A stretch of DNA of 54,617 nucleotides, the filler included, from Sluysia triapertura (lineage: Eukaryota): NCBI GenBank assembly GCA_046118255.1. It is 4 parts of 4 records of this genome, joined end to end, with 100 filler letters (N's around TTAATTAATTAA, not from the genome) between each part and the next. Parts side by side here need not be neighbours in the genome. Positions count along the whole stretch, not along the records: positions 13,847 to 27,184 come from JBJNIA010045792.1; 3 more parts are not named here. One strand, written 5' to 3'. The notes beneath the pieces are model-generated. The model worked only from the letters and a program-made list of their open reading frames with translations. It was not told the DNA's origin and made no database searches. Positions within the stretch are counted from its first letter, which is position 1. Every line of letters starts with the position of its first letter. This document shows positions 14,554 to 50,136 of this stretch, piece by piece. A program made the translations under genes and the position numbers.

Positions 14554-15257
14554 ACCAACAGTGACAATTAATATTTATTTGTGATAATGCTAGTAATATT
14601 GATAACTTACTTGCGATTAAATCTTATTTTGATTCCCGATCTAAATACAAGAGTTTATTTACACTATTTAAATGACTTAAAATTCTTATTATTACTACTG
14701 TAACTATTATTATTTTCGTAATGATAATGATGTATTAAGAAATTATCATTTTACATGATGACGTTCAACAATATAAATATGATATTTTCGTAGGATTGTT
14801 AAGCAACTTTTTTTATTACGAGAAAGTTTTTCACAAAAATTACGTACATATATTTTAAAATGAATATGTTAACCTTTGATTTTATGAAAAGTAGTGTTTG
14901 TATAATACATATTCATTAAAGGTATAAAAATTGTAGATGTATAATTTACACTCATAATGTAAATTCTTAAAATAAATTAAAATTTTTGAAATGAATTTAA
15001 AATCTAGCACTGAATAAAGAATTTTAATTACTCTAAAAGTACTAATATGAATTTCTAAATTATTATATACATCCTATGAAATTAATGTTATGAAAATAAA
15101 GAGTGTAATTATGTTTTAAAAAAGTATTAATTAGTTTGTATCATATTTACAAAAATTTGTTTAAATACACATTATTTTCAGCAATCATAAACGTGATTTT
15201 AAAATTATATTTTTGTTTGTTATATAAAACTAGTAATTAATTTAATATTTTAGAATT

Positions 15258-15566
15258 ATGTCTGGAAACCAAAATGATGTTGAACAACCACCGATTGAAG
15301 TGTTAACAACAATAGTACGTAGTATACCTGTTGGTTTGGGAGGGTATATTATTGGAAAGAAAGGTGGCTTCAAATCAAAACTATTAGAGGAATATGGAGC
15401 ATTCTTAGTTTTATATAATGATGTAAATGATTGTGGGAGACAAATTATTACTTTAAGCTGCCCAGCAGATCAAAAAAAAATTGTGGAAGACATTATAGAT
15501 TATAAAATTGGTCAGTTGCGGAAAATAACAATTAAAACTGTTACAAGCCGACCATCTTTACTAAGA
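15258..15566 (+). CDS. KH-Tudor protein (TDRKH/papi/AKAP1-like), KH exon
   Basis: IPVGLGGYIIGKKGG is a KH GxxG loop. Phase-0 GTAAGG donor at 15567. Confidence 0.8.
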
Positions 15567-16038
15567 GTAAGGTTATAGTTGTTAATTTATTAGGTCATGG
15601 TAAATACCATTGAAAGTTTGAGTTGTTTTGTACGATTTGATTTTTATCATAAATGAAGGAAATGACTAATTCTTCATTTAATTTGTGATTTTAAGTCTTT
15701 ATTTCGATTGTTTTTGGGCTTTGTACCAAAAGTTTTTAAGCTTATGAATATGATAGTTTTATTTAAATTTATCACATTTTTCCACTTTAATCTATGTATG
15801 ATGATCAAACACGTCAAATTAACGATGAATCTGAAATTTAAATCTTAATTGAATTCTTCAGATTATATAGGTGCAATTAATCGTTTTTGAATGGAATTAC
15901 TTTGAATTATATACATAATATTTTAAGTTGAAAAGTTAACAATTAAGTAGAATTGCATCGAAATCGAAATTCAATTATTGATGCAATATTTTTGCAAAAT
16001 AATTTTTCTTGTTAGATTTTGAGGTTATGTTTATTTAG

Positions 16039-16430
16039 CCGCTTGTGCAGCTTGGTAAATTGGTGCCAGGATACGTTATGAACTGTGGGGAAATCGACGA
16101 TTTAATTATTTTGTTAGATCCTCCACGAAGCTCTCGGCAGAAATACACAGACGACTTCTTGAAAATGCATATTGAATTGCAGAAGGACTATGGCAGTGGG
16201 CGTTCCTCAAGTTCGAACATTAACTCACCTCCGCATTTACCACGACCGATATCATCAGGCTGCATATGCGTGGCTCATGGAACTCGCAACCAGTTTTACA
16301 GAAGCCTAGTTCTGCAAGTTATGAACGACAATTTTGAAAATTCCGGTGTTGGAGGTGGTTATGCCGTGGTATATTTCGTGGATGTCGGCAAGTTTGAATG
16401 TTTACCATTCGAAAGATTGTTTAAAATACG
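16039..16430 (+). CDS. KH-Tudor protein, extended Tudor exon
   Basis: TTTAG acceptor in phase 0. G-x-ICVA..FYRSLV..VYFVDVGKFE is the Tudor signature. GTTAG donor at 16431. Later exons were not identified. Confidence 0.8.
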
Positions 16431-17762
16431 GTTAGATTTTTCAAAATCAACTTAAAACATGTGAAATTAAAATTTAATTTATGACTAATTTCAAATTCGG
16501 ATATTTGTCCATTCTGCTCTCTTTTAAACTATAAGAATTACAAAAAACGCTTTATTTTTAAATCCATAGTAACTGTGGATACGCTTCGATTGATTTATTT
16601 TTCAAATACGATTTTTAACAAACGCTTCGCTTACAAAATATCAATTTATAGCAAGTCTTGTTTGATTCAAATTAATTCCTATTTCGAATTTATCGATGAT
16701 AAAGTAGCCTCAAGTTGTAATACATGATTTTTTAAAATTTTTTCATCCTGAGAATTGCTAATATTTTTCAAAAACCTACTAGTTTGTCTTTCTATATTAA
16801 AAATAAATTGTTTCAGGGCACCAGATTCATTGTGTATTAATGTGCAGCACATTGGAATTTTTCGATTAGGATTTCTTAACAATGAATATTGAAAATAATG
16901 ATTTAGACCGCTAAAGATTTCAATGTAAGAAACACAATGAGTGATTTAGTACTCAGTAGATATTAGTGCTCTGTAAGTTAATGTATTATAAACTTATTAA
17001 ATTAAATTGTTTTACATATTGAAAAGTGTTTTATGTTCCAGTTAATTTATTTTTAAGAATCTATAAACGGGTCTTATTTAAATTATCATTACGAAATAGA
17101 AATTTAATGAGTTTCCTTGTAAGCTATGAAAGACCTGTAGGATTTTGAACTGATAATTCCTTAATAAACTTTATCGATTGTTGGTGGGATTTTCTCGCCA
17201 CGTTAATCCAAAATATAGAATTACTTAAATCAGAAACAAGAAACAATGCTGAAGTACATTGAGCTCAATAATTTACTTCTACTAAATTGATAATATAGTT
17301 ATCATGGAATCAGTGTTCTGGATTTATAACTTTTCGGCGTGGGGTAGCACAAATTTACTGCTATGATAGTTTTTTTATATTGAAGTTATTCTTTTGGTAT
17401 CATATATAATATGCTACTGGAAATGTGTTTGATGTTCTGTTCAGGCCTGCTTAAAAAAGCTTAACAAATATTATGTAAACAATAAAAAAGGCATGTTTTT
17501 CTGCATAAGAATAGCAAAAATAAAAGATTTGACTGGTTAATACCCTAGTCCATAGAAATTGCATTATTGGGTACAGTTTTCCTCTTCCTAACCTCCAGAT
17601 TTTTAGGAATTTTAAAAATTATAATAGAAAACTTCTCCAGTTGCCAGTTCTGTTAACCGCCACATTTTAAAAAAAATATTTTAATGCTTTATTTTTACTT
17701 TTGACATGATAAAGTTGTTTTAATATTAATTGTTTATGAAAAATTTTTCATTGGACCTTAGT

Positions 17763-17830: not shown

Positions 17831-18544
17831 AATATGTATATTCAGATAACAGAGTAGCAGAGGTTGATAATTTTAATGGATTTGTTTCTAAAGCACGGAT
17901 ACTTGATTCTCTTTGTGAATATGAATAATTTTAGGTTTTACTGAATATGATGTAATTGTAGAAGAATTTGATTTTGAAAGTAAAAATCTTAAAGAAAATA
18001 CTGGAGTTCAAGAAGTTTTTACAAGTAATGATAAGTTAGATGATGATGAAAAAGAATCATCAGATAATGACATTCATAACGTTGTGTAGGGAAATCACTC
18101 TTCATCACATAAAAACATCGCACATATACACAGATCATTAAACAAACTACTAACTTCATTCAAAAAACAAACATAACCATTGCACGTAATTGTCTTGAAC
18201 TACAGCTTTTATTATAATTCAAATCGTATTAAACTATATATAATAATAATAGTCATTATTGTTATATAATATGATTATCAAATAATAAATTTCATAATAA
18301 CTTTCATATTAATATCACCAACATCATTCTAAATTATATAATAACCGCGTTATTGTTATCAGTATTATTTTTTTAATCCTTATTATCAATCTTTCTTTTT
18401 CCATTTATATATTTATATACGTGTACGATCTGAAAGGAAGATCCGTTAACACATCCATTAGTAACAAATCTGTTGAAGATTTGTTTATTGTTTATTCGAA
18501 TTTAACGATTTACATTTTATTCGCTATATCGATTTGCGAATACA

Positions 18545-18972
18545 TGTATGAAGCCCATCCACCACACTACTACAAATTTAAAATAGCCAATAATTGGTCA
18601 GATGATAATCCAACGTGTGATCAAGTTATGAAGCATAATCCGAATGAAAAATGGAATTTAACTACCGAAGTTTTTAAATATTTTGTCATTATTTTATCAT
18701 TTATCGGAATATTGAAGGAGTGGGCTCAGATGATCACCAAACGTAAACATTATTTAAATATCGAAAATTGGATGGAATGGTTTTTATATATTCTATCCTT
18801 TGTCACTGTATTTGATATGACGTCTTTTACCATCGTAGTTTAGGAATTAGAGAAGCCTGGAAATGGCAAACTGGCTCAGTTGCATCATTTATTTGTATTG
18901 CTAATTTAGTCTTATTTATTCGCAAAGTACCATTTTTCGGGATATTTGTTGTTATGCTTCCTGATATTATGA
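18545..18972 (+). pseudogene. TRPA-family channel transmembrane fragment
   Basis: KEWAQM..KHYLNIENWMEWFLY, then after a frameshift (~18835) WKWQTGSVASF..NLVLFIRKVPFFGIFVVM: the S2 to S4-S5 linker pattern of TRPA1/pyrexia. No ankyrin repeats or pore are present. Confidence 0.8.
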
Positions 18973-20526: not shown

Positions 20527-21755
20527 NNNNNNNNNNNNNNNNNNNNNNNNNNNNNNNNNNNNNNNNNNNNNNNNNNNNNNNNNNNNNNNNNNNNNNNNNN
20601 NNNNNNNNNNNNNNNNNNNNNNNNNNNNNNNNNNNNNNNNNNNNNNNNNNNNNNNNNNTTATACATTTAAGCAAACTTTATTAAATGCTTAATAGACTGT
20701 TTTAAAATTAAATATTAAAACACAATCTTTAACAAAACAGACATTTTAGTAATTAATTAATTACTTTTCACAGTTAATATTTTAATATTATAAAATGTAA
20801 TATTAAATCATTTGCTGAAATTAAATTTTAAACATTTAAAAGAAGTTGCGAAGACTGAATATAAGTGAAACAATTAACTTTACATTTTAATATTTACGAA
20901 AAAGAACCCTGTTTTCTAAGATAATTAACATCATTTTAATTAAAATATTTACATTTCAGAATTTATTTCAAAATTTAGTTATTTGCTTTTGATTATAAGT
21001 AACTAAATAAATAAATAATTTAATAAATTGAAAATAACCAAAAGCAAATCCAAAAATAAAATTCCAAATAAATAAAATGATGCGTTACGTCAATAAATAC
21101 TTTTGTATGTAAGGTAAACGTTTTAAACTATACAAACATGTGCAAAAATATAAACGTATTTTCACAATTTAATGATATTTTAAGTAAAATATTGTGATTT
21201 TCTGAAAAATATTTTTATACATATAAGTTATACTTGTTATTCCGGTAGATTAGGTACTTCCCATTTTTCCAAATGAATCTTAAGACTGATACCTAGGCAA
21301 TTAGTAATACTAATGCTTATATTAATTGAAATCGAAATAAAATGATTTCATAAAATTCAAAGTCACTGAACCTTCGTAGAACTTCATAAGAAATTTCTTA
21401 TATACTTTATATACATGAAAGAATCAAATAATTTACTGACTTTAAAATTATCAGAAACATTAATTTTTTTGTTCCGTTAAATTCGTCGATTTCAAATCTG
21501 GATTAAACACGTTCAGAGTTTTAAAATTACAGTAATAAATATGATAAAAGGAGTAGTATTGTAGTGATGTCGAGGTGGCAACAAATGTTACATATAAGAA
21601 AATGTTAATAAAAAAGATTTTATTACGCGTTTATGATTTGCCGGAAATAAAAGTGTGATACTGCAGATATTGTAAATGTGTTCTATTTTGATATGATTTT
21701 TGTTTGTGATGGATGGTGATAATGGATGAGATGTATGTGATATAGTGGGATGTAA

Positions 21756-22031
21756 CACCACAGATGGGTTAGACCAATCATAGATACCGGCGCTACTATT
21801 GCTGTGGTTCACAAAAATTTTCTAACTACTTGGGAATCGATATTCCTAAACAGACCAAGTTTAATAACATATAATGTTAATCAAACACCAATAAATATAA
21901 ATGGAACGCTATTATGCTATATAGAAGTATTAGGACAATATGTACAAACTTTAGTAAATGTTTGGGATAATAGTCCATATGAATTGATATTAGGGATGGG
22001 TGTTATAAATAGATTAAGTATGGATTTATAA
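21756..22031 (+). CDS. Retropepsin-type aspartyl protease
   Basis: Extending ORF 21804 upstream gives RWVRPIIDTGATIAVV (DTG at 21783-21791), with the C-terminal YELILGM motif. Confidence 0.8.
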   Translation, partial: HHRWVRPIIDTGATIAVVHKNFLTTWESIFLNRPSLITYNVNQTPININGTLLCYIEVLGQYVQTLVNVWDNSPYELILGMGVINRLSMDL

Positions 22032-22069
22032 GTAAGTATGGATTTATAAAAATACCACCAGGTTCAAAC

Positions 22070-22933
22070 ATGATTATACCCCACACATTAGTTCCACAAG
22101 TTGGTGATGAATTAACTCTATATCAAATGCCTATGTCAAATCCACCATTACAAGTTTCGGACTTACCATTACCTGACATTATTGAATCTACATTCCATCT
22201 ATCAGATGTGTCATGGGGATCACCATCAACAATTACATCAGAGGAGAATTCGGATTCAGGAATCAGCTCTGACATACATGATACAGTAATGATAATAAGT
22301 AATATAAGAAAAAGAAACCACCTTAATAGAAATTGTTTTAGGAAAATAACTTGTTGGTTTACTATCTTGATTGCGATTTTTCTATCACTAATAACTAATG
22401 CCATAGCAACAGAAACGGACGAAGAATATAAAAATATGAATATAGCTACAAATCATGGTAGAGAACAGAAAATAATGATTACCGATATTTACAACCAATT
22501 TTGGAAATTTGAATTCATTTCTAAGAAAATGATTCTTCGACACAAATTCGAAATTTATTGTGTCTATTTGAAGCCATTGCAAGTTGGAAAACCACATCAT
22601 TTAAACGGTATCCCACATTGTTTACATTACGGTTATAGACCAATGTTAATAATTTTCTCTTTTGATACTCCAAGAAATACACGAGACACACAGAAATTTA
22701 TTAAACAAATAGATCAATTGCGAAATAAAGAAACAACGAAAACACAGACAACTTCACCTGTATATAGTACAATTAAGAAATCAATAGGTAATTCAAACAA
22801 TTTATATACAAAATGTACAATAGAAAATCCCTATAAATGTACAATACTACATATATTTTGGACCGTACTCTATTTGTTTCAAATAAGTAAGAAAATACGG
22901 GTTCCACAAATAATAAAAATCTTATACCTTTAA
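22070..22933 (+). CDS. Membrane polyprotein, part 1 (unknown)
   Basis: 287 aa: acidic linker, basic patch, then signal-like hydrophobic ITCWFTILIAIFLSLITNAIA. Confidence 0.6.
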   Translation: MIIPHTLVPQVGDELTLYQMPMSNPPLQVSDLPLPDIIESTFHLSDVSWGSPSTITSEENSDSGISSDIHDTVMIISNIRKRNHLNRNCFRKITCWFTILIAIFLSLITNAIATETDEEYKNMNIATNHGREQKIMITDIYNQFWKFEFISKKMILRHKFEIYCVYLKPLQVGKPHHLNGIPHCLHYGYRPMLIIFSFDTPRNTRDTQKFIKQIDQLRNKETTKTQTTSPVYSTIKKSIGNSNNLYTKCTIENPYKCTILHIFWTVLYLFQISKKIRVPQIIKILYL

Positions 22934-23025
22934 TTTTAATTACGATAGCTCAATGTCACGAACAATCTTTTAAGACGGAATATTTCGAATTCTATAATGG
23001 AGACAATGAAGTAAAAGTAAAAATA

Positions 23026-24498
23026 TTGAATGAAAACATTCATGCCAATTTTGCATGTTTAAAACCTGCCAGACTTAATTTTAGTTCATGGATTATACAC
23101 GAAAATTATATCGATAATGAATTAAGATATCCAGTCACGGTTTGCTCAGATATTTTACAGATCGAGGATAGACATATTATAGTAAGATTTCGCCATTTAC
23201 ATTTTGCATTTAAAGGAACAAGAAAGAATCTAACAATATTGGAGATACTACGGAATAATCCAGCGTTAGTAATATTAATTGCAGCGGAAATACTGTTCAT
23301 AATAGCTTTGGCTATAGTGGTATTGACTATCATTATGTTTATCTCGAATAGATGTCGATACCCATGCCTACCACATTACAATAATAATGATGGCAACGAC
23401 GCATACACAGTTCCACATAGAAACAATTACGCTCCTCCTCCAGGTATGCCAATACTTCAAACTCCCATTTACGAATATGCTACAAATAATCAAATACCGC
23501 TCGTATATGGAGATTGGCAAATGACTCAAGTCAAATCTATAATCTTAATATGTATTTACCTGTCTTCTATGTCTAGTGCAAATGATCTATCAGAAAACAC
23601 CACGCCTAAGGTAATTTTAGTCTCTACTCAAAAAGACGTATATGCTAGAATAATTGACAAAATTAAGTTATTTTCAGCTAAAATAAAGTGTTGTATAATG
23701 GATTGGTGTGAAATTGAAACAAGAGCAAGTAAACAGGACTTCTATTGGTTTATATCTTGTATTGATCTTGCCGAATTCCAACTAATTAGTGTAACAATAA
23801 CAATGGAACTAGAATATGATTCTCAAAGTGACTCCAGAACTATCCTAATACGGTATTATAAGATAAGAACTAAACCTTTTATTTTTCGACAATCTTCAAC
23901 AAAAATTGAATTTCCAATGATCATCTATCGCGATCTCCGAAATGTTGTACGCATTCACAATCCACTACACAATAATACATTATTGATCTCTTACGAACTG
24001 AGTAATGGATTGCGTTATGGAATAATATTGCCTAACGAAACTATTCGTTTATATCATATTCCGAATAATACACTCATGTTTGTTAAGTTCTGGATAATAA
24101 GAAAAGATGAAATACTTAATTCTAAAGGATTTTGGCCATCGATTAGGTATCACGACGTGCAGGTGCCAATTATAGATAAGAACGGAAATGATTCAGATTC
24201 AAAACCAAAGAAAATACTTCAAATTAATAACAATAGTACGAATGTATCGAATAACGAATATAGGAACATTAATATGACTACTACCAGTACAGATAAGATC
24301 ACAATTCTAAATACTACTAAGTTAAATGAGAAATCGAATAACGAAAACACTAAATGTTCAATTATAAAAGAATCCAACAATAATTTCTTGACAACTGTAA
24401 ATTACATTTTAATAATAACTTCTTTATTAACCTTAATAATTAATTTTATTATTCCAAAGTTTTACGTGTTTATTAGGCATATGGCACATTTTATATAA
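23026..24498 (+). CDS. Membrane polyprotein, part 2 (env-like or accessory, unknown)
   Basis: 490 aa: TM helix, Pro/Tyr-rich tail, second signal-like segment, ectodomain with many NxS/T sites, N/T-rich stalk and a C-terminal TM. Confidence 0.7.
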   Translation: MNENIHANFACLKPARLNFSSWIIHENYIDNELRYPVTVCSDILQIEDRHIIVRFRHLHFAFKGTRKNLTILEILRNNPALVILIAAEILFIIALAIVVLTIIMFISNRCRYPCLPHYNNNDGNDAYTVPHRNNYAPPPGMPILQTPIYEYATNNQIPLVYGDWQMTQVKSIILICIYLSSMSSANDLSENTTPKVILVSTQKDVYARIIDKIKLFSAKIKCCIMDWCEIETRASKQDFYWFISCIDLAEFQLISVTITMELEYDSQSDSRTILIRYYKIRTKPFIFRQSSTKIEFPMIIYRDLRNVVRIHNPLHNNTLLISYELSNGLRYGIILPNETIRLYHIPNNTLMFVKFWIIRKDEILNSKGFWPSIRYHDVQVPIIDKNGNDSDSKPKKILQINNNSTNVSNNEYRNINMTTTSTDKITILNTTKLNEKSNNENTKCSIIKESNNNFLTTVNYILIITSLLTLIINFIIPKFYVFIRHMAHFI

Positions 24499-24741
24499 AT
24501 TTTTAACACATATTGCATAATTGACCATATGTAATGGCACTCCCATTCATGTTGGGTCATGTGTAATATTAAAATTATAAAATCAAATTTGTAAATATAA
24601 TAAGGATTGTGCATATGACTGTATGTGGTGGTTTACCACCCATCTCGAGTCATGCACTTAAAATATTACTTAAAATTAATATAAGTTTAGGATTTTTAAT
24701 ATTATTTATTTATTATCTTATTATATATTTTTATTTTTTAG

Positions 24742-25200
24742 CTAGTACAAACAATAATTTCCTTTTCAACGTGTGCCATCTGTCTGCGCTCCCTTCGTAA
24801 GTATTTTGCAAAAACCTCTCCTTGCTTCCACCGTTTCCACTTCTTTTGTCTCTACCATCTTTTTGAATCTTCTCCTACACCTTTACCAAATTGTCCTTTA
24901 TGCAGAATTACCATCCATAAATGTGACATTTTTTATAAGCGTATTTTTCGACGATCGTATGAATTCACGATCAAGTATATAACAGACGAGTCAGAAGAAC
25001 CTGGCATTGACTTATATCAACCAGAATCGCCTTTAAGAAAAAATAACACAAGACCGCCTCCAAATTTTCCCAAAACTTTAACTAAGTCACAAAGACGCAA
25101 CAGGAGAAGGCGTCAGTTAAAGCATTTTTATAAGCAGATAGAACAAAAAACATCTAAACCTTCTAAAATCCCTAACCCATTCTTAAAAAAGAGATATTAG
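24742..25200 (+). CDS. RING-H2 finger + Arg-rich motif exon (152 aa, no start codon; absent from ORF track)
   Basis: After a T-rich TAG acceptor at 24741 the frame reads CAIC-x13-CFHRFHFFC-x14-CPLCR ... TKSQRRNRRRRQLK ... KKRY*. Confidence 0.85.
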   Translation, partial: LVQTIISFSTCAICLRSLRKYFAKTSPCFHRFHFFCLYHLFESSPTPLPNCPLCRITIHKCDIFYKRIFRRSYEFTIKYITDESEEPGIDLYQPESPLRKNNTRPPPNFPKTLTKSQRRNRRRRQLKHFYKQIEQKTSKPSKIPNPFLKKRY

Positions 25201-25312
25201 GTTTTTCAAAAAATTGTTTTCATTATTATAATAAAATTAAAATAATTACAATAAGCTTACTTAATTATAATTTTTTTGTGTACAATTTTATGTTTTATTC
25301 TCCTCTATATAG

Positions 25313-26652
25313 ACAAAAATGCAAGCCAAGATCCTGAATCAGCCCAAAAATTTTTACGTTCACGTGGATAAATTCTGCCACCAGAGTATTACCCCCGCCT
25401 TCTTTTCTTGCTCAGTTGAAACACCTAACAACCTTAAATCAGAACTAAACCTTAATCTAGCAACACATATTTTTTCTTTGAAGCCCGAAACACCTTTAGT
25501 TTCACTTGATGGCTTATCCCAAATCCCTGAAACAATAGATTCCTTGTATTTGGCTGTAGCACGAGGAGTAGTTAAAGTTGCGTTATTTGATAATGGCGTT
25601 CCGTTTCATACTCGTCTCCACATGTTTTCCTCGTTGTATATATCAAAAATACACAAAAAGTGTAATATAGTTATTGAGGCTAATGAATATCCTACCTCAA
25701 TTGCTCTTCTTTTTCCTTTACCACTTTCTTCTTTTCAGTCCTTTCTCCCCAATTTGTATAAGGAAGATAGTGCTAACCTGACACGATGGAAAAATGGAAC
25801 ATCTTTTACACATGTTTCACCCATGTCGGTTGAGGATGAAGACAGTTTAGTCTTTGTTGCATACTCATATGCCTACGATTTTTTAAATCAACCCCACATA
25901 CTCAAATATCCTGTACTCCTTATTCCCGACAATTTCATAATGACATAAACATAAAGCCGCGTCTGCGTATTAAAAACTTTGTGAGGGACGTACATGAGAT
26001 GAAAGATTCGGATATTTCCGAAGCAAAGGATATTGATGATGTCCGCCCTTTCTTGCTGGGACATCTTCATGATAAGATAATGGTCTCACTAAATCCGTAC
26101 CTTATTATCCATGACTTAGATCTTCCATTTGGTTGGCTCAAAGGGATTATTAATTTATCTAATAATAATCTAGTATCTTATTCCACAGACAACGCAATCT
26201 TAAGAGGGAGACAGACTTTTAAATTGCTCTATCCAATACCTCCTCGGATGACATGTTCACGAATGTCATTCGAATTAGTTGCCTTGCTGGATAAAATTCG
26301 CGAAAAAGATTTAACATTTATTGCTAATTGTTCTCTTCCTCCTTCACTTTTTTCTGGTTCTTCTTCTCTCAATCATAATACTCTTGTGGCACCTATGAAA
26401 TCGACAGCAACATCGTCAACAACATCTGACCCAGTATCAGTAACAGCGCGGTCCAGCCAACAATTATCATCATCATCATCTACTATACAACAGCGAAATT
26501 TACATCCAGAATCGCCTCGGCCAACACGAATTCCACTGGGACCGAATTTAGCATTTCCACAATATAAAAAGAAGAGTTATCAATCACTCACCAGTCCACC
26601 TGATCCGACTGTGTGGAGTGACGACTCTGATGTGGACTTAGATGACTGTTAA
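25313..26652 (+). CDS. Unknown protein split into 209-aa and 223-aa ORFs by a probable frameshift near 25930
   Basis: AG acceptor at 25312 is in phase with the ATG at 25319. The second frame is open upstream into the end of the first. S/P-rich and acidic C-terminus. Confidence 0.6.
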
Positions 26653-26734
26653 CCATAACGAATTTTAACTCTGATTTATATTTTTCTTTATTTTATTTCA
26701 TTTATTTATTTTTTTTATTGTTGCCTGCTTCCTC

Positions 26735-27184
26735 GATTCGAGACGAATCTTTCCGAACGGGTAAGTATTGTAAATATTAAAAGTATCTGTAAAGTAAACA
26801 GTATATATATTTTTACGTATTTTTATTGTCAATATTTTTAATTTTTATAATATTTAGCTTAATGATATTAATTATAAAATTTAATAAGAATTGCAAATTT
26901 AGTAATTTTTGAATAATTATATTGATAATTATAAATACAAATCTAAGTAATTATTATTTAAAATTATTCATCTAATTTTTATAAACAAAGTTTATTACAA
27001 ATTTAGTTAATTATTAATATTTATGTTTATAAAGGAAATTTACAAATATAAAGGAAGTTACAAAGTTTGTTACAAATCTAGCTAATTAATATTTATGTTT
27101 ATAAAGGAAATTTACAAAAGGAAGTTAATATTCAATCGAAATTTAATTATTCAAATAATTATTAAAGGAAATAGCTGATTTAAT
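26735..27184 (+). mobile_element. Gypsy-like PPT region and start of a putative 3' LTR
   Basis: TTCGAGACGAATCTTTCCGAACGGGTAAGTAT|TGTAAAT (TGT at 26769) resembles gypsy pre-PPT/PPT junctions. The AT-rich downstream part has a ~70-bp tandem duplication (~26988-27128) and is cut by the contig end. Confidence 0.55.
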
Positions 27185-27284
27185 NNNNNNNNNNNNNNNN
27201 NNNNNNNNNNNNNNNNNNNNNNNNNNNNTTAATTAATTAANNNNNNNNNNNNNNNNNNNNNNNNNNNNNNNNNNNNNNNNNNNN
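27185..27284. other. Artificial contig spacer
   Basis: 44 N + TTAATTAATTAA + 44 N. Confidence 0.97.
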
Positions 27285-28603: not shown

Positions 28604-28849
28604 TGTTGTAAAATTTTATAGTTCGAAGTTTTAATGCTTTGTAGTTATGTTAAAAGTGGTAAATTAATAATGTGTGAGGTGAATTTGGCGTATGACGATG
28701 TGTTAGTAATAGAAATTGTTGTTGGAGTTTGCGTATAATTTACTTTGAAGTTTCAAATGCATATTGACCATATGTGAATGTTTTAAAATGTGTGAAAAGT
28801 ATCAAAATGTTTCGCTTGTGAATCGTGTATAGGTTTGTGTGTAACTACA
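28604..28849 (-). repeat. 3' LTR of the Gypsy element
   Basis: Minus strand PPT AAAGGAGGGCTAA is immediately followed by TGTAGTTAC... and ends ...TACAACA. Confidence 0.7.
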
Positions 28850-31800
28850 TTAGCCCTCCTTTTAAGAAGCGGAGCGAGCGTAATCATTTTTGGTGCATAT
28901 TATATTGGCTTACTTTTGAGGTTACGTGGCCCTTTTTATTGTGATAATATGGATGTGGGTCGAAGGACACTGATTTTTTGATGATTTACCAGTATAGTGG
29001 CCGGTTTTAGTATACACCAGTTAATTGTTTTGTCTTGTCCGCTGATATCGACAATAGCGGTGTTATTTTCCAATTTAAATTTTTTAACTCGATGGGGTCC
29101 GGCATACTTTGGCTCTAGAGAAGTTGGGTTTTCGATTGATACCCAAACAAATTGACTATCTTGGATGTTTTGAGGGATGTGGATATAAGAATTATTGTTA
29201 TGACGGGTAGATTTGGCCAGTTGGTTGAAATATTCTCGGAGAAGAGATGAATAAACTTTCTCTGTGGGATTATAAGATTCAAATAGTTCGAAAGGTAACC
29301 TTATGTTTGTTCCTAGAACTATTTGAGCTGGCGAATATCCAGTTGAAGTATGTGGAATATTATGCCATCCTAAGAATATTAAAGGTAATGCGCCAACCCA
29401 GTTATGATGTACAGACTACGCACGCAAGGAGTTTTGAGGGTGCGGTGAAACCTCTCAATCATACCATTAGATTGTGGATGATATGCTGTTGTTCGGAGTC
29501 TAGTGCTGCCCAATTGTTTTATTAAATTATTGAATAAGCCAGACTCGAATTGAGCTCCTTGATCTGTGATAATCCTTTAAGGAACTCCGAAGTGAGAAAT
29601 CCAACGTGTAATTAGGATTCTGGAGATAGTCTCCGAAGTTATATTCCTAATGGGAAGCATCTGGCCAGCGGCTATGTCAGTCTATAATTGTTAAAAGATA
29701 TGTGTAGCCACGGGATTGTGATAATGGACCGACAATGTCCATACGAATAGTTTCGAATAAGTGGCCAGTTGGGAAATGAAGTTGTCCCGGTTTAATATGT
29801 TTGTGGACTTTCACAGACTAGCATATTAAACAAGCTTTGCACCAGTGTTTGATATCTTTGTGCATTGAAGGCCAAATCACTTTGGAACGTAATACTTCAT
29901 ATGTGGCCTTAGCCCCAGAGTGAGTGATGTTATGCATGTATTGAAAAGCTTTAAATCTAAGCTTTTGGCCTAAAACTGGGCGCGATATACCTGATAGCTG
30001 ATGGTCAAAATAAATTCCCTCACGCAAAAGTGGCATGGTAGTGAATTGGGAGATTTTGCTGTAGATCCTACGGGGATAAGGCGTCCGCGACCACATCTTC
30101 TTGTCCCGGAATATATTCAATATTGAAATTGAATTGGGAAAGATAACTGATGTGCCGTTGTTGCATGGGTGTTGGATTCTTCATGTTAAAGATGTGTAAC
30201 AGCGGCTTGTGGTCCGATCGTAATGTGAACTGAGCTGAAAGAAGCAAATATTCGAAATACTTTACTGATAAGTAAATAGCCAGCAATTCACGATCGAAAG
30301 CGGAATATCGTGTTTGTGGGGCAGACAACTTGCATGAAAAGAATTTTATAGGTTTTGAAGTTCCTTGTTGCATCTGCGTAAGTACAGCGCCTAATGCTAT
30401 GTTAGAGGCATCCGTAGTGAGGATAAAAGGTACTTGTGGCAGAGAGAATGACAAACTGTTCATAATGACTTCCTTGGTGCGATAGAAAGAAACCAAAGAA
30501 TTTTGATCCCATTGAATTGATTGCGATTTTTATATGTGAAAGCTTCGGTATAAATCTTCGACAATAATTGACTAGCCCTAAGAGACTCCGCATTTGTGTA
30601 ACTGTTTGTGGTTGCGGAAAGTTTCTTATTGCCGACGTACGGCTTTCTAATGGTTGAATGCCGTCAACGGAAATATGGTGACCTAGAAATGTAATTCTCG
30701 GCTTGAAGAATTGTTATTTCGTCGGTTTAATAATTAAACTATTGCCGGCCAATTTCTTGAGCATGGTATCCAAATGAATTTGGTGTTGTTGGATATGTCA
30801 ATATAGGCCGTTGAGAATGGCAATCCTTGAAGAACTTGGTCGATATGACGCTGAAAAGTTTGTGCAACATTGTGTAAGCCGAAAGGCATTCTGATATATT
30901 CAAAGAGACTAAAAGGGTAGTTATTGCCGTTTTGGGTATATCAAGATCGTGCACCGGTATTTGGTGATAGGCCTTGGCTAAGTCAATTGATGAAAAGACG
31001 CTGCATCCAGAAAACCAATGTAATATATCCGTTATAAGAGGCATCGGGTATGCGTCGGGTATAGTTACCTTATTCAACATTCTATAGTCGCCGCATATTC
31101 GAATATTACCATCTTTTTTCTTTACGATTTGTAGAGGTGAGGCCCAAGGTGGTGGGGATCGCCGTACAATTCCTCGTGTTTCCATGTCAAGGAATTCTAA
31201 CTCTGCTTGTGCACGGATTTTCTGAGATAATTCTCTCTGCGTTGTCTGCAAGGAGGGGTTGGTAAAGTCTTGATAAAATGCACTGAGTTAGGTACATGAC
31301 TTGAATTGGATTGTTGATTAAGTAATTCAGGGTAAACCTGCTCCACATAGGAAATAATATTTGTTTCATTGAGTTGTTGAAGTTGTATCCTTATGTGGGA
31401 CACTTGTCCAGAGCTTTTACTTAAAGTTTTTGATCTGAGAAAATCTGTTCCCAAGATTGGCTGTTGAACTGCAGCTAGCTATAAGAAAATTCCATTGGAA
31501 TACTTCAGTGACGACCATTGGCGTGCTCAGTTTTTTGAGGCTGTGTCAAATGAATTAAACTGATTACAGCCGTCCATGCATCTTTTGGCCAGATCTTTAA
31601 AGTATGCATGGTAGATAAATATATTTTTGATCCTCAGGGTATTAAGTTTATTTGGGTATTTGCAACATAGTACGCAGCATTTGGCCTTCTGCTGGAACTT
31701 ATTGTGGTAATAGCAGATACCATTGAATTTCCTGAGGTTACTGGATGATTTGTGCGATGTTGAAGACGACCTAGAATTAGAGGGTGAGTTTTGTTTGAAA

Positions 31801-32070
31801 GTTTTTTTATTTTGTTTGTCGAGAAGATTTACTGAAAGCATCTTGGTTATTTCTCCCATTTGGTTGGTCAGTGCATCGATTCGTTGAGACATTGCTTCGA
31901 GTGCACTGTTAGACGTGGCAGTGGATGATGAGGCCTGTAAGTGTGATGCGCCTTTCATTAGATTTATTTTGTCAGGGCGGTCGGTACTCCATTGAATTAG
32001 AATATTGTCCGCCAAGAAGGTCATATCGTCGATATCAGTGGTCCGACTGACAGGCAAACAGCCTTAACAA
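28604..32070 (-). mobile_element. Decayed, 5'-truncated Ty3/Gypsy retrotransposon (CsRn1/Kabuki-like)
   Basis: Gag with CYYHNKF..AKCC motif; protease remnant PILGTDFL; RT WASPLQIVKKKDG..CGDYRMLN..PDAYPMP..IDLAKAYHQI; RNase H LTTDAS..YSAFDRELLA..SDHKPL..VADALS; integrase HHCC, TAYHPQSNGMIERFHR, YAGP. Many stops and frameshifts. Confidence 0.97.
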
Positions 32071-33722: not shown

Positions 33723-36091
33723 CGCCAATACCTCACTTTGCGTCGGAGTTACGACACAAATTGAAATGACGCAATAGCAAACCATGTAAAGATCGAAGAT
33801 AGGTTCCAGGGTTACGAAAATACTACTTTTTAAAAAGAAAATTGAACAAAGTAAACATGAAAAAAATAAAATTTTATTACATACATACAAAAAACAAAAA
33901 AAACGTATTCAGTTTAAATAAAATAAACTATTCAATTAATTTATGAAAAACAAAATTAAAATAAATCACTGTCTGATGAGTCTATGGTGGCTGTTATCGA
34001 AAGTCGGCTTTCTTTGACAAAAAAATTGGTCAAATTCTTGCCGAACAGCTTTTTTTCAAAGTAAAATAAATTTCCTTGTAGCAATTGATATTCGTAGCTA
34101 CAGCCTGGGACACTGTAAAACTCCTTCCGCTGTCAGGATCGTTTTTTAAAAAATCTCCATAGCTTCGTCAATCAAACACATCGCTTTGGAAATTTGTTTG
34201 GAGGTTAAATTTTGTTCTTCGGAGATTTATATTGAACGATTACTGTCATTTTCTTCATTAGCAAATTGCAATTCCAGTTGCAATAGTTCTTCATTAGAGA
34301 ATTCTTAGTTGTGCGAGGTTAGCAATTCGTTTATGTCAGTTTCCTCCATACCTTCAAAATTAGACTCTATAGCTAAATTAGAAATTTCATGACTAACAGC
34401 TGGTGCACCATCAACTTCTTCAGCGCATATTCGGTGAACACATTCAGGCCATATTTTGCGCCAAACACCATTCATGCAACATGGTTTAACCTCCCACGAA
34501 TCGGGAATAATTTCTATGGCTTTCGTAATGTTGAACTTTTTCCAAAACTCTAGCATGGTAGGCTTATCTTGTCCATCAGTCTCACTTAAAAGAAGTTTAA
34601 ATGTCGATATTACTTCCTGATCCATTGGCTAAATAACTGGTGTCGTATTAAGCGGCAAAAATACAAATTTCACGTTTTCTGACTACTCATCATGTATTGG
34701 GTGGCCAGGAGCATTGTCTAGTAGGACCAAAGCCTTGAAGTTTAAGTTTTCTTTGTTGCAATAAGCTTTAATTTCAGGAATAGCACAAGTCGAAACCCAG
34801 TTTTGAAATAATGATGTTGTCATCCATGCTTTTTTGTTTACTCGCCAGTGGATAGGAAGCAGATTCTTTGAACAACCTTTCATAGCTCTTGGATTTTCTG
34901 ATTGAAAAATGAAAAGTGGTTTAAATTTGAAATAACCATTTGCATTACCACCAAGAAGAGTCAGTCTATCTTTGCTAGCTTTAAATCCTGGCGCAGATTT
35001 TTCTGTTTTAGATGTGAAAGTTCTGTTAAGTAGATGTTTCCAAAATAACCCAGTCTCGTCAACATTAAAGACTTGTCTCGGATCATATCCACATTCATGA
35101 ATTAATGCTTTTAACTCTGTCGAGTAGTGTTTTGCAGAAGTTATATAAGCGCTAGCTGCTTCGCCTTTAAGAGCAATGCTGTGCAGATTTGCTCGAATTT
35201 TGAATCTCTCAAACCAGCCCTGACTAGCTTCAAATGTTTCATTCTTGTATGTATTACTACCACTAGCATTATCTTTGGATACTGCTTTACTTTTTATGTC
35301 ATCAAATAAGCTTTTTGCTTTTGTCTGAGTTACCATTTTACTTAATGGTATTCTCTGCGCAACTTGATTTTCAATCCAAATAGAAAGCAAGGACTCTATT
35401 TTTATCATCAAAGCACTCCTTGTACGAGTTACCGTTTTAGCATATAATGATGTTGCAGATTTTGCAGCCTCTATTATTTTATCACCATCTCGATCTCTAA
35501 TAGTTCTGACAGTTGTTGCAGCCAGACCAACAGCCTTTGCTATCTCCACAGCCTTTTCACCCTTATCATATCGTCTCAGAATATCTAATTTTGTCTCCAA
35601 GCTGATAGTTTTATTATATTTTTGGTAATTCTACCAGCAGTGCCCTTTCCACTCATTTGGCTAAAAATTTACAAATGTAATTAAAAAATAATATAATTCT
35701 GCCAATAAATAAATTGGAAAAATATTTACCTTTTTTGTAACCCGTAAAAATTTATAAAAATTTATCATTCTCTTTTAAAAAAAGCACAACACATTACATA
35801 ATTGAAACCTGAACTAAAATTGGCAAAACAAAGTGAAAATAAAACTGTATTAAAATTGCGTTGATTTTCAGTTAGAAATGGAATCCAGAGTTTTGATGGC
35901 ATGGCGCAATTAGAAACAAAAGTTGTGCCATCTTTTAGAAAAAAGAAAATTACAAAAAAAATTAAAGACTCGAACCCAAAACAACGTAACGTCGAAAATC
36001 TAACGACGCACAATGAAAATTAGTACTAATTAAGCAGCGACACAACTTCGAAAAAGTGCGAAACGAAACGATGCAAAGTGAGGTATTTTAA
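33723..36091 (-). mobile_element. Tigger/pogo DNA transposon with decayed transposase (~35656 to ~33965)
   Basis: TIRs AATACCTCACTTTGCGTCG (33727-33745) and CGATGCAAAGTGAGGTATT (36069-36087). Translation includes ASQGWFERFK, GEAASA, VFNVDETGLFWK, LLLDNAPGH-like, QPMDQEVI motifs. Frameshifts and stops present. Confidence 0.97.
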
Positions 36092-37039: not shown

Positions 37040-37414
37040 TATTTTATAATTTTTATATGGTACAGGTACGTTTTTCAATCTTTGGACATGTGTTGTTTAG
37101 TCTGGATTGGTGTGAGCAGATGTTTCTTGATAGTTAAACCGAACATGGAAAGAAAGTATCTCGAAACTCGTATATCACATATTTGTATTCCAGTAGGACT
37201 GGTTTTGTTTTCTATTGTTATAGGAGTATTTCAAATTATTATTCGGAAACCAGCAATACATTTGAATTTAACTTTTATTTGGTGTTCTATCAATCCCAAA
37301 GAAGATATTTATTCCATTCTAGGTATAGGTAATGCATTGATAATGATGCTAGTATGCTATACAGTTATATTTATTACTGTTTTACGACAACAGAAAAAAA
37401 TAGCAGATATGAAG
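37040..37414 (+). CDS. Rhodopsin-class GPCR exon (TM3-TM5)
   Basis: LVWIGVSRCFLIVKP (DRY-equivalent), TM4, ECL2 WC, TM5 LVCYTVIFITV, basic ICL3, then a GTTAG donor. The 5' junction may be damaged. Confidence 0.7.
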
Positions 37415-38118
37415 TTAGTTTGTATTTGCAGTTTTTAAAGTTTAAAATATTAAAAAATAATTGTTATACATTATCACGAGTATCTTTAGTCGAAAGAGTT
37501 TTAAATTATTAGGATAATTTTAAGAGAACTATAATTAATGTTACTATAAAGAACTTGATATATACAAATTGAGAATAAACAATTTATTTAATGAATTTGC
37601 AATTTTCAATAAATTGTTTATTTCTCAAGCATACGAAATCTAAGTATCATTCTTAAATTTCTAAAGTTTTTAAAACTCTTCATTTGTTTAGATCTAAGCC
37701 TAAAAGTGTCAATTAAAGCGACTAAGAAAATAAATTGACTGAATTAATTACTCATTTAATTAATTATTTCATTTAATTCAAAACAGTTTTTTAAAACAAA
37801 TTTAAACCATGTTTTAACATTATTAGATTACAACATTTGTAAACACCATAATTCCGATTGTCTTCACATTATTGTCATCATTATTTATTTATTTTCCATT
37901 TAAGTAATAAATTTATTCTATACATTAAAGGAAAAGAAACGAAATTTGGAGGTAACAAATTCGTGTTTTTGATTGAATAACTGTCATAGTGTAAACGAAG
38001 TGTTAACACTACTATATGCAAACGAATTTAAACGGATTCAGCGTCAAAATAACGAAATACAAAATTTATTTAAGCAATTTTTGATTGAATTACTAAAAGA
38101 TTCAGAAACAGCAAAGTA

Positions 38119-41978: not shown

Positions 41979-42078
41979 NNNNNNNNNNNNNNNNNNNNNN
42001 NNNNNNNNNNNNNNNNNNNNNNTTAATTAATTAANNNNNNNNNNNNNNNNNNNNNNNNNNNNNNNNNNNNNNNNNNNN
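41979..42078. other. Artificial contig spacer
   Basis: 44 N + TTAATTAATTAA + 44 N. Confidence 0.97.
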
Positions 42079-45855: not shown

Positions 45856-46644
45856 TCTGTGGTTTTCTTAATGCTAAACCTACGGCAAAATAAAATTGAG
45901 CATGGTCCACTTACAGTAAGCGTCTTACAACTAGTACTTTGCACCTCTGTAGCTAATCTTACTTAAAAATCTTACTTAAATCACTTGAAAATATCACGTT
46001 TAACACCTTCCTCTAATTAGGGTCTCATTTAATTATGACAATTATACCAATTTAACAAGAACGAAAAGTAACACTTAATTTTTATTGTTAAAATACTTAC
46101 AAATTTAATAATATAATATGAAATAGCGCTCTTTGTAATTAAATTTATTTAAGAATCTTTATTTTGAATTGAAATTTTAATAATATAATATTCCTCTCGT
46201 TATATCGAGGAAAAACAATAATTAATAAAAGATTTTAAGATATTATTTAATATTTTATCTTCTCCAGGAAACACAAATTACCGTAAGCATGAAAAGTATC
46301 CAATAATCCAATAAGTATCCAATTATACAATTAAATTCGTAGACCAACTATTAATGTTGAAAAAACCAAAATTGAATTTGTGTAACTGATAAAATAACTA
46401 AAAAATTGATGACAACTGTAAAATGGCGATTTTCATTAAACATTCTAGAAGCTTCTATTCTATTTATAGAAGCAAATTATCTTTTTAGAATTTCTATTTT
46501 CTTTTTTGAAAAAAAATTTTTTTCTTTTTTAGAAAATAAAAATGTTTTTGGATATTTGGAAACTTTAAAATATTTTTTAAATGATTTAAAAATTTTTTAA
46601 TAATATTTTATGTAATTTTTGAGGATCGTGATGGCAATCTAACA
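45856..46644 (+). repeat. ~0.8-kb LTR-like repeat family, copy 2
   Basis: Shares TTACAGTAAGCGTCTTACAAC with copy 4 and TTTTGGATATTTGGAAA..GATGGCAA..TAACA with copy 3. Confidence 0.85.
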
Positions 46645-47679
46645 ATTTACTTTAATTGAGTAGAATACATGAAGAAATAATACATAGTCCTGGTTTTCGT
46701 TATCGAGCAAATATTGTGAATGGTATGCAGAATGATAAATTATGGTAGGAATAATTGCATCTAATATAATTATATCAATTTTTCTATGTATGAATTTCCA
46801 TGAATTTAATTTCTGTCAATTAAATATATCCCTTCACATGCATTTTGACCCGAATTTTATTAATGACGAATAATTTTTAAGCTGAGCAAAATCTCATTTC
46901 ATGTACAATTTGTATTGCAAAATAAATGATGCCAAACAAAAATCATTTATTGCATAATTAATACAGCTATCAAGAAAAATATATAATGAGCAAAACCTTT
47001 TAAACTGTACAATCACATTACTTTTGAAAATTTTTACATCATCTTATACTTCAAAGTACTTCGAAATATGAAATTAAATATTTAAATATAACTGTAATTG
47101 GAGAGACTGTATTTTAAATATTAATTATTTCAGTTATTTTACTAACGAATGAATGGTTAATTACGAATTGCATGATTCTTCAACCTTTAGTACTTCAGTG
47201 CAATTCAGTTTTGTATTTTCACATCAAACCGTAATCAAAATTAAGTATCTTTAAATATATTTCGCAACGAATTTCCAATGAAATCGCGGTAGATCAAAAT
47301 AGTAAATTTCCAACAATATCGTAATTAATACCACATGAATAATTTATGTTTTATTACTTTTAAGTTTAAGTGAAATTGATTTTATATCATTAAAAATCTT
47401 AACTAATTTAGTAAATTTTATTTTTGTAATCAATTCTATATTTCATTTTAATTCTGAACTTTTCCAGATTCTTTGAAAAATTCCAATTATCGTGAATAAT
47501 TGACTAATTAAATTATGATTCAATTTTAATTTCATCGTTTTACTTTAATTAATAACCCATTTCTAAATATTTTAGTAGTTAGTTATCTTAAATCGCTTTT
47601 TGTGGTAGAGATGGAACTGCAAAATTGTTGCACTTTTAAAGTCATTCTAAGATTAGATTGTATGATATAAAATAATCAT

Positions 47680-48390
47680 ACGGGCGCTTCTGTAACTAAT
47701 AAGTTGAGAATCTTACTTAAAAGTATTACGTTTAACACATTTAGAGGGTCTTAACGATTTATCAAAAACGATAAACAATACCTAATTTTTATTAATAACC
47801 CGTAAAAATTTTGATAATATAATAAAAAGAGTATAGTTTTTAATTAAAATTCTCCTGGAATTTTTAATTTAATTACTAAATTTAATAATATAAAATTCCT
47901 CTCATTATATCGAAGAAAAACAATATTTAATTAAGGATTTTAGAGTAATATTTTAAAATTTTTATCTACTCCAAGATGATAAAAATTCCCTGTAAACATG
48001 GGAATAAATGATCCCCAATAATCCAAGGAATATCCTAGTAAAGAATTCTGCAAATAGATTTGTTAAACGAAATATTCGTATCAAAAAACCAGATAAAGCA
48101 TGTGCCAAAATTTGAGTGACTGATAATTTAAAAATAACTGAAAAGTTAAAATAGCAATTTTCATTAAACTGATGCTAGTTTAAATACAAGTCATCAGCCA
48201 ATGAAAATCTATGGACTGTTATAGAACATTCTAGAACATTTTTGAAGCTAATTTTCCTTTTTCTATTTTCTTTTTTAGAAAATAAATGTTTTTTGGATAT
48301 TTGGAAATTTTAAAATATGTTTTTAATGATTTAACAGAATCTATAATAATATATTATGTAATTTTATAGGGTCATGATGGCAACTTAACA
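47680..48390 (+). repeat. ~0.8-kb LTR-like repeat family, copy 3 (5'-truncated)
   Basis: Shares GCTTCTGTAACTAATAAGTT with copy 4 and its 3' end with copy 2. Confidence 0.85.
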
Positions 48391-49831
48391 TCATCATTTA
48401 TTATTCAGTCATTCTTAATTTTTGTAACCTCATATTTCTTACGCAAATCATTTCTATATTTTTTGAAAATCTACCCACTATTGACAACTCTGACAATTAC
48501 GTAATTAAATATCATAAAAACGGATTAATGATCAACTGTTATTTCTATCTAGTTCATTCGGTACTTTTATTCTTATATTTTGTAATTATGCATTGATTTA
48601 TATTAGTTTGTGCCTGCTGGTCTCCTTTTTATTTCCATTTTAATAAAATAATAGCTATTTTTCGTTTTTCGGTGCTTTCGTTTGATCAGTAAACTTTTCG
48701 ACTTCGTAATCTAAAATCAAACAAATTTTATTAGAAAAATATTGATTGTTTCTATAGATATTAATTATAGATATTCTTATAGAAATAATTTTAAGATGCT
48801 TTTTTATAATTTTAAACTACTTTTATAAAATTACTTTTCACAGTAAATTTGAAATGATATTAATTAATTATAAAATTTAAAACATTATTATAAATGCGAT
48901 TTTATTTGTTTCAAATATAGAAAAAGAAAATCCATTATAGATGTAAATAATATCAATAACATTATAGTACATAAAGTTATAATCAAACATGAATAAATAA
49001 TTTTATTCTTCTAAAAATGTTGTTTTGCTACAATACTTTACCAAAATTTAAAAACAGTTTATAAATAGAGTAGGAAGGTTTTTTTATAATTATCTGGTAA
49101 CTGTAAAATTTAAAAAATATAAAACTTTGTTAAAAATATTTCATTATTTTATTCAGAAAATAACCAACAAGATATTGGCCCAGTCAACAATATATTTTTA
49201 TTATAAATAAAATTAATATTCATAACAAGGTTGACTGATTGTACAATTAATATGAGTACACTCAACTGGAAGTGCACTAATGCATGCATTAAATAATGAA
49301 GGGCTATCTAAATATGGACTAACTTCAAACTCTGGTAAAAGCATAATATAATGTGACGTAAAATATCCTTCGTTAATCAATACTACTCTACATACTTGTA
49401 TTGTTTTCATAAATATTGTATATACGCATACAATGAAAGTGAATTTTATATGTACATATATGCATATATTTCAAATTCAGATTCCCATATAACAAGTACA
49501 TACAAATATTATTGATATAATAATACACAGTTTGTGTGTTTGTTTGCTTATTAAAAGTTATCTTTTATTTCATGAGGACATTTTGAATATAGCTAGTGTT
49601 TTCGTGTTTATAATTTTATTTAATTTTACAATTAGCGCGCGCATTGTTTGAAATATTATTATTTTATCGTGATTTTGGTTAATCATTTTTATATTCCTTA
49701 TCATATTCATTATATTTTTCAGTTTGAGGATATACTAAACGCAATATTTTATTGATCTTTTATTTTTATTGAGTTCAACGTTATTTTGTGGATTTATCAA
49801 ATTAAAAATACAATATAGAAATTGATTAAAA

Positions 49832-49886
49832 ATGGCAAGTTTTATAGCTAAGCAATTGGTTGGTAAACAGTTAGAGTCAGTTAAAG
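49832..49886 (+). CDS. cpx: Complexin, coding exon 1
   Basis: Reads MASFIAKQLVGKQLESVK(G). Phase-1 GT donor at 49887. Confidence 0.93.
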
Positions 49887-49961
49887 GTATTAATTTATGT
49901 GCATTGATAAATTGTGTGAAATTATCAATATAATGATTTGATCAATTTGAATTGAATTAAG

Positions 49962-50125: not shown

Positions 50126-50136
50126 GTAATTGATTA

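Follow-up and report, generated by a model that had tools for sequence, protein, structure and literature searches.

What kind of genetic element is represented by a crowded run of open reading frames (ORFs) in the AT-rich genome of Sluysia triapertura? The locus occupies positions 21756-27184 of a 54,617-nucleotide window, the whole stretch of DNA that was analysed, which joins parts of four records of assembly GCA_046118255.1; the block itself lies at the right-hand end of the part taken from JBJNIA010045792.1. The initial annotation described the block as a copy, either internally deleted or non-autonomous, of an undescribed large long terminal repeat (LTR) element. Our analysis leans, with slightly better than even confidence, toward a young copy, with an internal deletion and a truncated 5' end, of an undescribed LTR retroelement rich in accessory genes. 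The general outline of the initial annotation gained from a dUTPase-like start, a nuclease-like gene and a structured spacer, whereas its polypurine tract (PPT) and LTR and its "envelope-like" label did not hold up.

The block is densely coding on one strand. Six plus-strand frames tile 21756-26652, and stop-free runs of at least 90 amino acids (aa) cover 92.6% of that interval on the plus strand and 6.7% on the opposite strand. By comparison, 500 order-2 Markov simulations gave a mean coverage of 6.1% and a maximum of 25.5%, which bears out the roughly 5 kb of dense same-strand ORFs reported initially. In all six frames, GC content at the third codon position is below that at the first. Three frame breaks occur, near 22010-22035, 22890-22935 and 25840-25950, and there are otherwise no internal stops in 4.1 kb; five segments tile this length, three over 21758-24498 and two over 25313-26652, compared to the 15 segments required for 3.1 kb of a neighboring gypsy element. 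So few breaks imply that the copy is young or that some breaks are assembly errors, and a young copy is likely. The features are as follows.

21586-21757, minus strand: 172-bp LTR-like box with 8-bp inverted TG..CA ends, abutting the protease frame.
21756-22031, plus strand (91 aa): retropepsin-like protease with DTG and ILG motifs, N-terminus missing (PF13975, E 0.0017).
22013-22933, plus strand (306 aa): frame M1, with a P/S/D-rich linker, a basic stretch, a signal-like hydrophobic segment (22352-22408) and domain A of about 150 aa.
22043-22141, plus strand: first 33 or so residues of a dUTPase-like domain, read in the frame that follows the protease (HHalign, profile scan).
22891-24498, plus strand (535 aa): frame M2; first part with a signal-like start, domain B of about 100 aa, a transmembrane (TM) segment at 23266 and a Pro/Tyr-rich tail; second part with a signal-like segment from Met 23521, domain C of about 270 aa, an Asn/Thr-rich stalk, a TM segment (24397-24453) and a short tail.
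24499-24680, plus strand: spacer separating the membrane frame from the RING exon, with two long RNA hairpins predicted by folding.
24742-25200, plus strand (152 aa): RING-H2 exon without ATG (PF13639, E 6.9e-8), with an Arg-rich motif at about 25090-25116.
25201-25312, plus strand: intron-like spacer (15% GC, pyrimidine tract) ending in an acceptor-like AG.
25313-26652, plus strand: one gene in two frames, U1 (25313-25948, 211 aa) and U2 (25840-26652, 270 aa), with an ATG at 25319, a DEDDh-exonuclease-like core at about 25948-26136 and an S/T/P-rich tail.
26653-26768, plus strand: T-rich tail, the "PPT" of the initial annotation, with a splice-donor consensus (GGTAAGT) at 26761.
26769-27184, no strand assigned: AT-rich DNA (14% GC) to the contig end, the "LTR" of the initial annotation.

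The first frame supports a retroelement origin. It carries the D-T/S-G active site of a retropepsin of clan AA, family A2-like (DTG) and, at the right spacing downstream, the hydrophobic-hydrophobic-Gly motif (ILG), as first annotated; the sole Pfam match at E<=1 is a weak one to gag-asp_proteas (19.3 bits, residues 4-86). A single-sequence structure model of the protease was all helical (predicted local distance difference test score, pLDDT, 52) and is not credible. The next frame begins with a dUTPase-like stretch: HHalign against 11 aligned dUTPases matched 34 columns at residues 10-43 (E 0.066), and a profile of 16 columns, picked after the motif had been seen, gave this stretch the top score among 32,916 window positions. 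In the bdelloid rotifer elements Juno, Vesta and TelKA, a dUTPase or dUTPase-like domain sits between protease and reverse transcriptase (RT) (PMC5408684), and a dUTPase-like domain follows the protease, before the RT, in the planarian element Burro (PMC6431247). In the block, the match extends over about 33 residues and is succeeded by a low-complexity linker rich in P, S and D, which is the pattern expected from a deletion. Moreover, a Pfam search of the block matched no RT, RNase H or integrase, in agreement with the initial annotation; those found at 28.9-31.3 kb are part of another element, on the opposite strand and past a contig linker. The dUTPase-like start, for which the evidence is moderate, is the chief new argument for an internal pol deletion, whose junction would lie between about 22140 and 22290.

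The same region could be read as a native, unusual gene order, in which the protease belongs with the membrane precursor, on the envelope side or as in Burro, and the RT and integrase lay upstream and were cut off at 21757. The protease, linker and first signal segment are indeed contiguous and little decayed, Burro env lies between gag and protease in one frame (PMC6431247), and Gag, Pol and Env share one frame in the Atlas belpaovirus (PMC9094657). However, a dUTPase-like start marks a Pol-type protease, which normally leads to RT, and left of the 172-bp box there is no stop-free frame longer than 41 aa. We therefore consider a native order unlikely compared to an internal deletion. Programmed frameshifting was also considered for the break at the protease end, where a heptamer resembles viral slippery sites. 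This candidate was rejected, as the heptamer is part of a short tandem duplication and the 15 best folders include no downstream window; the break is more likely a mutational scar.

The membrane region that follows had been described as about 800 aa of membrane-protein coding sequence; its hydrophobic segments are present, but frame breaks divide it. A hydropathy scan detected three strong segments, at 22352, 23266 and 24397, the latter two being the TM peaks of M2, and two shorter signal-like segments (near 22915-22956 and from Met 23521) were read by eye and are unscored. These segments delimit three ectodomains, about 150, 100 and 270 aa long, and M2 holds 12 N-glycosylation sequons. The presence of TM segments and sequons is cautioned to be insufficient for calling an env gene (PMC5408684). 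Searches of Pfam, PHROG and NCBIfam gave no family match of note for M1 or M2, and the membrane region contains no furin site (R-x-K/R-R). M2 had no homologue at E<=0.001 among 1,835,955,588 representatives, and searches of a 5.8-billion set, the Atlas protein set and metagenome contigs were blank; eukaryotic repeats are poorly represented in the sequence sets searched, so that blank searches do not prove that the block is single copy.

Known types of envelope and fusogen did not fit. With no Pfam match, no furin site and a largest ectodomain of about 270 aa, the region does not resemble the F- or gB-type Env of errantiviruses. Likewise, it gave no Pfam match to Gn/Gc of Belpaovirus, and its segments are too short for a Phlebovirus-like Gc of about 500 aa. 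The sORF2/FAST-like fusogens are short single transmembrane proteins (10.1101/2025.03.14.642691), whereas the membrane units here belong to long frames with ectodomains of 100-270 aa. The "envelope-like" cargo of the initial annotation was therefore not confirmed. Instead, the region reads as three small type I proteins, unlike an F, gB or Gc envelope, from a precursor that we infer would be processed by signal peptidase.

Between the membrane frame and the RING exon, the 24499-24680 spacer is predicted to fold at -45.8 kcal/mol (z -3.86), and none of 200 shuffles folded as well. Its minus strand folds less well (z -2.05; 5 of 200 shuffles). In a scan that took in 157 of the 161 possible 100-nt windows of 20660-27184, the two spacer hairpins ranked first (z -4.54) and third (z -3.80). 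No Rfam family came near threshold for the spacer. The hairpins sit in the would-be intron upstream of the RING exon, where an RNA export element would lie; a rival reading is that they are microRNA-like.

The RING-H2 domain was confirmed: zf-RING_2 matched at the E value listed above, and the C3H2C3 ligands stand at RING spacing, as initially proposed. Because its frame contains no Met, splicing would be needed for expression. Both this exon and U1 had been annotated as preceded by splice acceptors. Acceptor-like AGs with pyrimidine tracts do occur at 24741 and 25312, two of five such sites on the plus strand of 21400-27184; these AGs double as the TAG stops that bound stop-to-stop frames, so the argument is partly circular and not independent. 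Splicing is argued for more strongly by the absence of Met from the RING frame. Only one run of six Arg in eight residues occurs in the six frames of the window, and it lies in the tail of the RING exon; a leucine-rich export signal could be encoded by a missing upstream exon.

Searches of the PDB with the RING gave cellular E3 ligases about as good as viral matches, among them an alphaherpesvirus RING (E 0.0014); no RING homologue was found in viral contigs. The likeness to cellular ligases would suit a host gene cluster composed of a Ddi1/ASPRV-type protease, surface proteins and a RING ligase. We regard such a cluster as highly improbable, since the frames are intronless over kilobases where the host genes of the window consist of short exons, the protease continues into the membrane precursor, frame breaks are present, and no Ddi1-type family matched at E<=1. 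A second alternative is that the block is a mosaic or assembly chimera of unrelated repeat fragments, with a protease-membrane half and a RING-nuclease half. The two halves do differ in composition, the assembly is fragmented and window parts are joined by linkers, and one listed sequencing run contains 0.44 of the words. Against this, the halves share one strand, tight spacing and equally low decay, and the structured spacer falls exactly at their join, which makes a chimera very unlikely.

The last gene had been annotated as an ORF of about 440 aa without assigned function; its coding character was upheld, but not its single frame, given the break at 25840-25950. The ATG of U1 (25319) is six bases past the acceptor-like AG. 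A profile of 15 DEDDh proteins matched U2 over 57 columns (HHalign E 1.7e-4), in agreement around the second motif of the core, and U2 scored best of 361 window frames (15.7 bits versus 5.2 for the next). When U1 and U2 were read through with an X at the break, none of 1000 shuffles reached the DEDDh score (z 8.2). The Asp and Glu of the first motif and the catalytic His were not aligned, and U1 alone gave no match. From the unaligned acidic motif and His we infer that the U1/U2 product would be a DEDDh-like fold that is probably catalytically inactive. Inspection by eye suggested that U1 holds a further DEDD domain or a Maelstrom-like one, but this was rejected (local z 0.3, global z 1.9; p 0.68 for an internal repeat). 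U1 had no homologue in viral contigs or the PDB, and its best value in the Atlas protein set (0.78) was at chance level; homologue searches with U2, including the PDB, were blank. None of six exact look-ups of block sequences found a copy, and tblastn of the block frames revealed no likeness to the rest of the window. Two single-sequence structure models (pLDDT 33 and 52) were unusable.

Both ends of the block are cut. Inverted TG..CA-ended boxes occur 18 times in the window, so that the box ends at 21586-21757 are weak evidence alone. The minus strand of the box has a GC content of 0.285 and a GC skew of -0.63, close to the 0.289 and -0.56 of the neighboring gypsy 3' LTR; the two sequences are not alike, and no target-site duplication was seen at the box. 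This composition and the lack of a frame longer than 41 aa to its left suggest that the box is probably the opposite-strand LTR of another family, whose insertion cut off the front of the block. The box was rejected as the block's own 5' LTR, as it shows no likeness to the DNA after 26769 (p 0.31).

At the right end, the initial annotation placed a PPT|TGT junction and an LTR at 26769. Neither was supported: the DNA after 26769 is 14% GC, compared to 29% for the LTR of the neighbor and 20.5% for the left flank, it is not repeated elsewhere in the window, and it does not resemble the 172-bp box. The pattern that recovers the PPT of the neighboring gypsy at 28863 finds nothing at 26769. Instead, the position adjoins a strong splice-donor consensus, GGTAAGT, which occurs once on the plus strand of the window, at 26761. 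No RNA structure was predicted for 26653-26768 (z -0.10). An LTR may yet lie there, because the contig ends 415 bases past 26769, at the linker at 27185, but 26769-27184 is not supported as part of the element. A short tandem duplication lies at 27010-27130, just before the contig end.

DNA viruses commonly carry RING, DEDD and dUTPase genes. The block could then be a piece of an endogenized nuclear DNA virus, or of another non-LTR mobile element, with a cassette that combines small, immune-modulating membrane proteins with a RING ligase and an exonuclease-like gene, a reading we find quite unlikely. It is favored by the lack of any confirmed LTR feature, by the alphaherpesvirus RING among the PDB matches, and by the 8-mer TTGTTGCC, which lies inverted at the two block ends (21570-21584, minus strand; 26718-26736, plus strand) and nowhere else in the window. 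By contrast, the succession of a retropepsin and a dUTPase-like start is an arrangement of retroelements, the block ends align at chance (p 0.18), and no polymerase, capsid or PHROG match was found. Terminal inverted repeats were accordingly rejected. CCTCGA closely follows each 8-mer copy, and the pair could be a primer-site-like motif or chance.

A number of results weigh against an LTR retroelement copy, or against its proposed parts. The block lacks RT, RNase H and integrase, and no gag, primer-binding site or target-site duplication has been shown for it; no paired TG..CA LTRs occur in the window, with both block ends cut, and none of the four purine runs of at least 10 in 21400-27184, candidates for a PPT, lies near 26769. 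The gag-asp_proteas match falls below the cut-off of 28.2, although it covers profile positions 9-92 of 92, and no protease relative was found among longer proteins, the PDB, metagenome contigs or viral contigs. Pfam and PDB searches returned no dUTPase, which together with the post hoc choice of columns keeps the dUTPase evidence moderate. They also returned no DEDD match for U2; the DEDDh profile test was set up after the motif had been seen and is not independent of the weak matches of U2 residues 37-86 to two NCBIfam 3'-5' exonuclease models (E 0.055 and 0.15). Pfam REV matched RING-exon residues 102-129 weakly (E 0.047), a PDB search with the Arg-rich part returned no Rev, the only pattern resembling a leucine-rich export signal falls inside the RING, and the Arg run could simply be a nuclear signal. 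The left flank holds the second-best folding window (20980-21079, z -3.86), so such folding scores also arise outside the element; this short region is possibly a small inverted-repeat element. Finally, GC content differs between the two halves (0.30 versus 0.36-0.38), as a chance mosaic would also give.

We still favor the deleted LTR retroelement copy, and every module type in it has a precedent. Like the block, the bdelloid Juno, Vesta and TelKA have a dUTPase after the protease and extra ORFs encoding a DEDD exonuclease or small TM proteins, DEDD ORF3s being known in LTR elements, and the non-autonomous TelKA2n keeps env without most of pol (PMC5408684). In these elements the nuclease is of the DEDDy type with intact residues, and each family has one ORF3 type (PMC5408684); the block instead combines a DEDDh-like core lacking a visible first motif with three membrane domains and a RING exon. 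Burro, a giant gypsy-like element of planarians, shares with the block a dUTPase-like domain after the protease, ubiquitin-system cargo including a RING-type motif, and an unusual env place, but its cargo lies in a single giant frame, its F-type env is upstream of the protease, and it spans 25-30 kb (PMC6431247). Errantiviruses, with F or gB Env (PMC13524379), and the Atlas belpaovirus, with Gn/Gc (PMC9094657), likewise carry signal- and TM-bounded ectodomains 3' of pol, and host proteases cut the Atlas precursor into two glycoproteins (PMC9094657). The block differs from both in having no fold match, ectodomains of about 100-270 aa and no furin site. Troyka has CG..CG ends and no envelope (PMC12440569), unlike the block, in which a membrane region is present and no ends were identified. 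In Cer1, a Ty3/gypsy element of C. elegans, a spliced 3' exon yields the nuclear protein CERV, which is needed to export unspliced RNA (PMC10309623), as proposed here; as described, CERV has a Cys loop besides its H, M and G domains, and no RING, and Cer1 has no membrane precursor (PMC10309623). No element with the gene set of the block was found in open-access literature text.

The block has the layout of a complex retrovirus. In lentiviruses, Rev and the Rev response element (RRE) pair a spliced, Arg-rich small protein with structured RNA in an intron near env. The corresponding part of the block differs from Rev in its marginal REV match, its fusion to a RING-H2 domain and its lack of a clear export signal, and we claim no homology. 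We keep the block out of Metaviridae, errantiviruses and Belpaoviridae because the RT and integrase, PPT and known Env types were looked for and not found; of the Metaviridae order, in which protease is followed by RT, RNase H and integrase, it has a protease-like frame only. This copy is unable to move on its own.

A scheme consistent with these features can be proposed. The block likely represents the middle and rear of its parent element; RT, RNase H and integrase were likely lost by an internal deletion just behind the protease, and insertion of another element in the opposite orientation likely removed the front. A long RNA of the parent would encode Pol and the membrane precursor, which would be cleaved by the signal peptidase of the host into three small surface proteins of type I with attachment or host-modulating roles. 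A spliced RNA may join an upstream coding exon to the RING exon. The resulting Arg-rich protein would attach to the hairpins of unspliced RNA and permit its nuclear export by Rev/CERV logic, and/or ubiquitinate a host factor through its RING. A second spliced RNA would yield the probably inactive DEDDh-fold protein, which may bind RNA ends and blunt a small-RNA defense. A bolder extension, which we judge fairly unlikely, is that an invertebrate LTR lineage independently built a full complex-retrovirus toolkit, comprising a three-part envelope, a RING-fused Rev/RRE-like pair, a dead-DEDDh decoy and an RT-less satellite form. Taken jointly and at the same low probability, its envelope proteins would be cut by signal peptidase, unlike F, gB, Gc and FAST, its decoy would act against small-RNA silencing, and its RT-less protease-envelope form would spread as a helper-dependent satellite.

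Elsewhere in the window, GC content per kb outside repeats is 17-32% (20-27% in the flanks). Linkers of 100 bases, all identical (two runs of 44 N around a 12-mer that has stops in all frames), occur at 13747-13846, 27185-27284 and 41979-42078; they mark contig joins, so that the sequences on either side need not adjoin in the genome. The neighboring gypsy (28640-32063, minus strand) is ordinary and heavily broken and carries RT, RNase H and an integrase zinc finger by Pfam; at 28863 it has a PPT-like run and at 28640-28849 a 210-bp TG..CA box, whose 5' LTR partner was not found in the window. A Tigger/pogo-type transposase lies at 34305-35630 (minus strand; DDE_1 E 6.5e-18, CENP-B/Tc5 helix-turn-helix) in two broken frames. 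Host exons at 15246-16455 (plus strand) encode a Tudor domain (E 2.3e-5); the upstream exon appears KH-like, which would make a KH-Tudor gene of the PIWI-interacting RNA pathway type. Hydrophobic exons at 18313-18950 (plus strand) resemble a TRP-type channel and have no Pfam match. A CCCH zinc-finger exon (6257-6715, minus strand; E 7.4e-6) and a rhodopsin-family receptor exon (37040-37438, plus strand; E 0.0038) were also found. Together with the Tudor exons and the low GC content, they suggest that the host is likely an animal with AT-rich DNA. Three diverged copies of a unit at 45863-51855, 73-83% alike in stretches and spaced by 1.7 and 3.9 kb, are probably tandem host paralogues.

Even if the block is only a dead, deleted copy, it still signals an unannotated family with proteins that have no relatives in 1.8 billion representatives. 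Env-bearing retroelements of invertebrates have so far been sorted into F, gB and Gc types, and the open-access literature surveyed contains one worked invertebrate example of regulated export of unspliced RNA, CERV. If the proposed functions are true, an unrelated membrane module in three parts, an Arg-rich protein fused to a RING and facing structured RNA in an intron, and a decoy with a nuclease fold would extend the lists of env types and RNA-export systems, and the element would provide a small, testable model of complex-retrovirus regulation arising by convergence.

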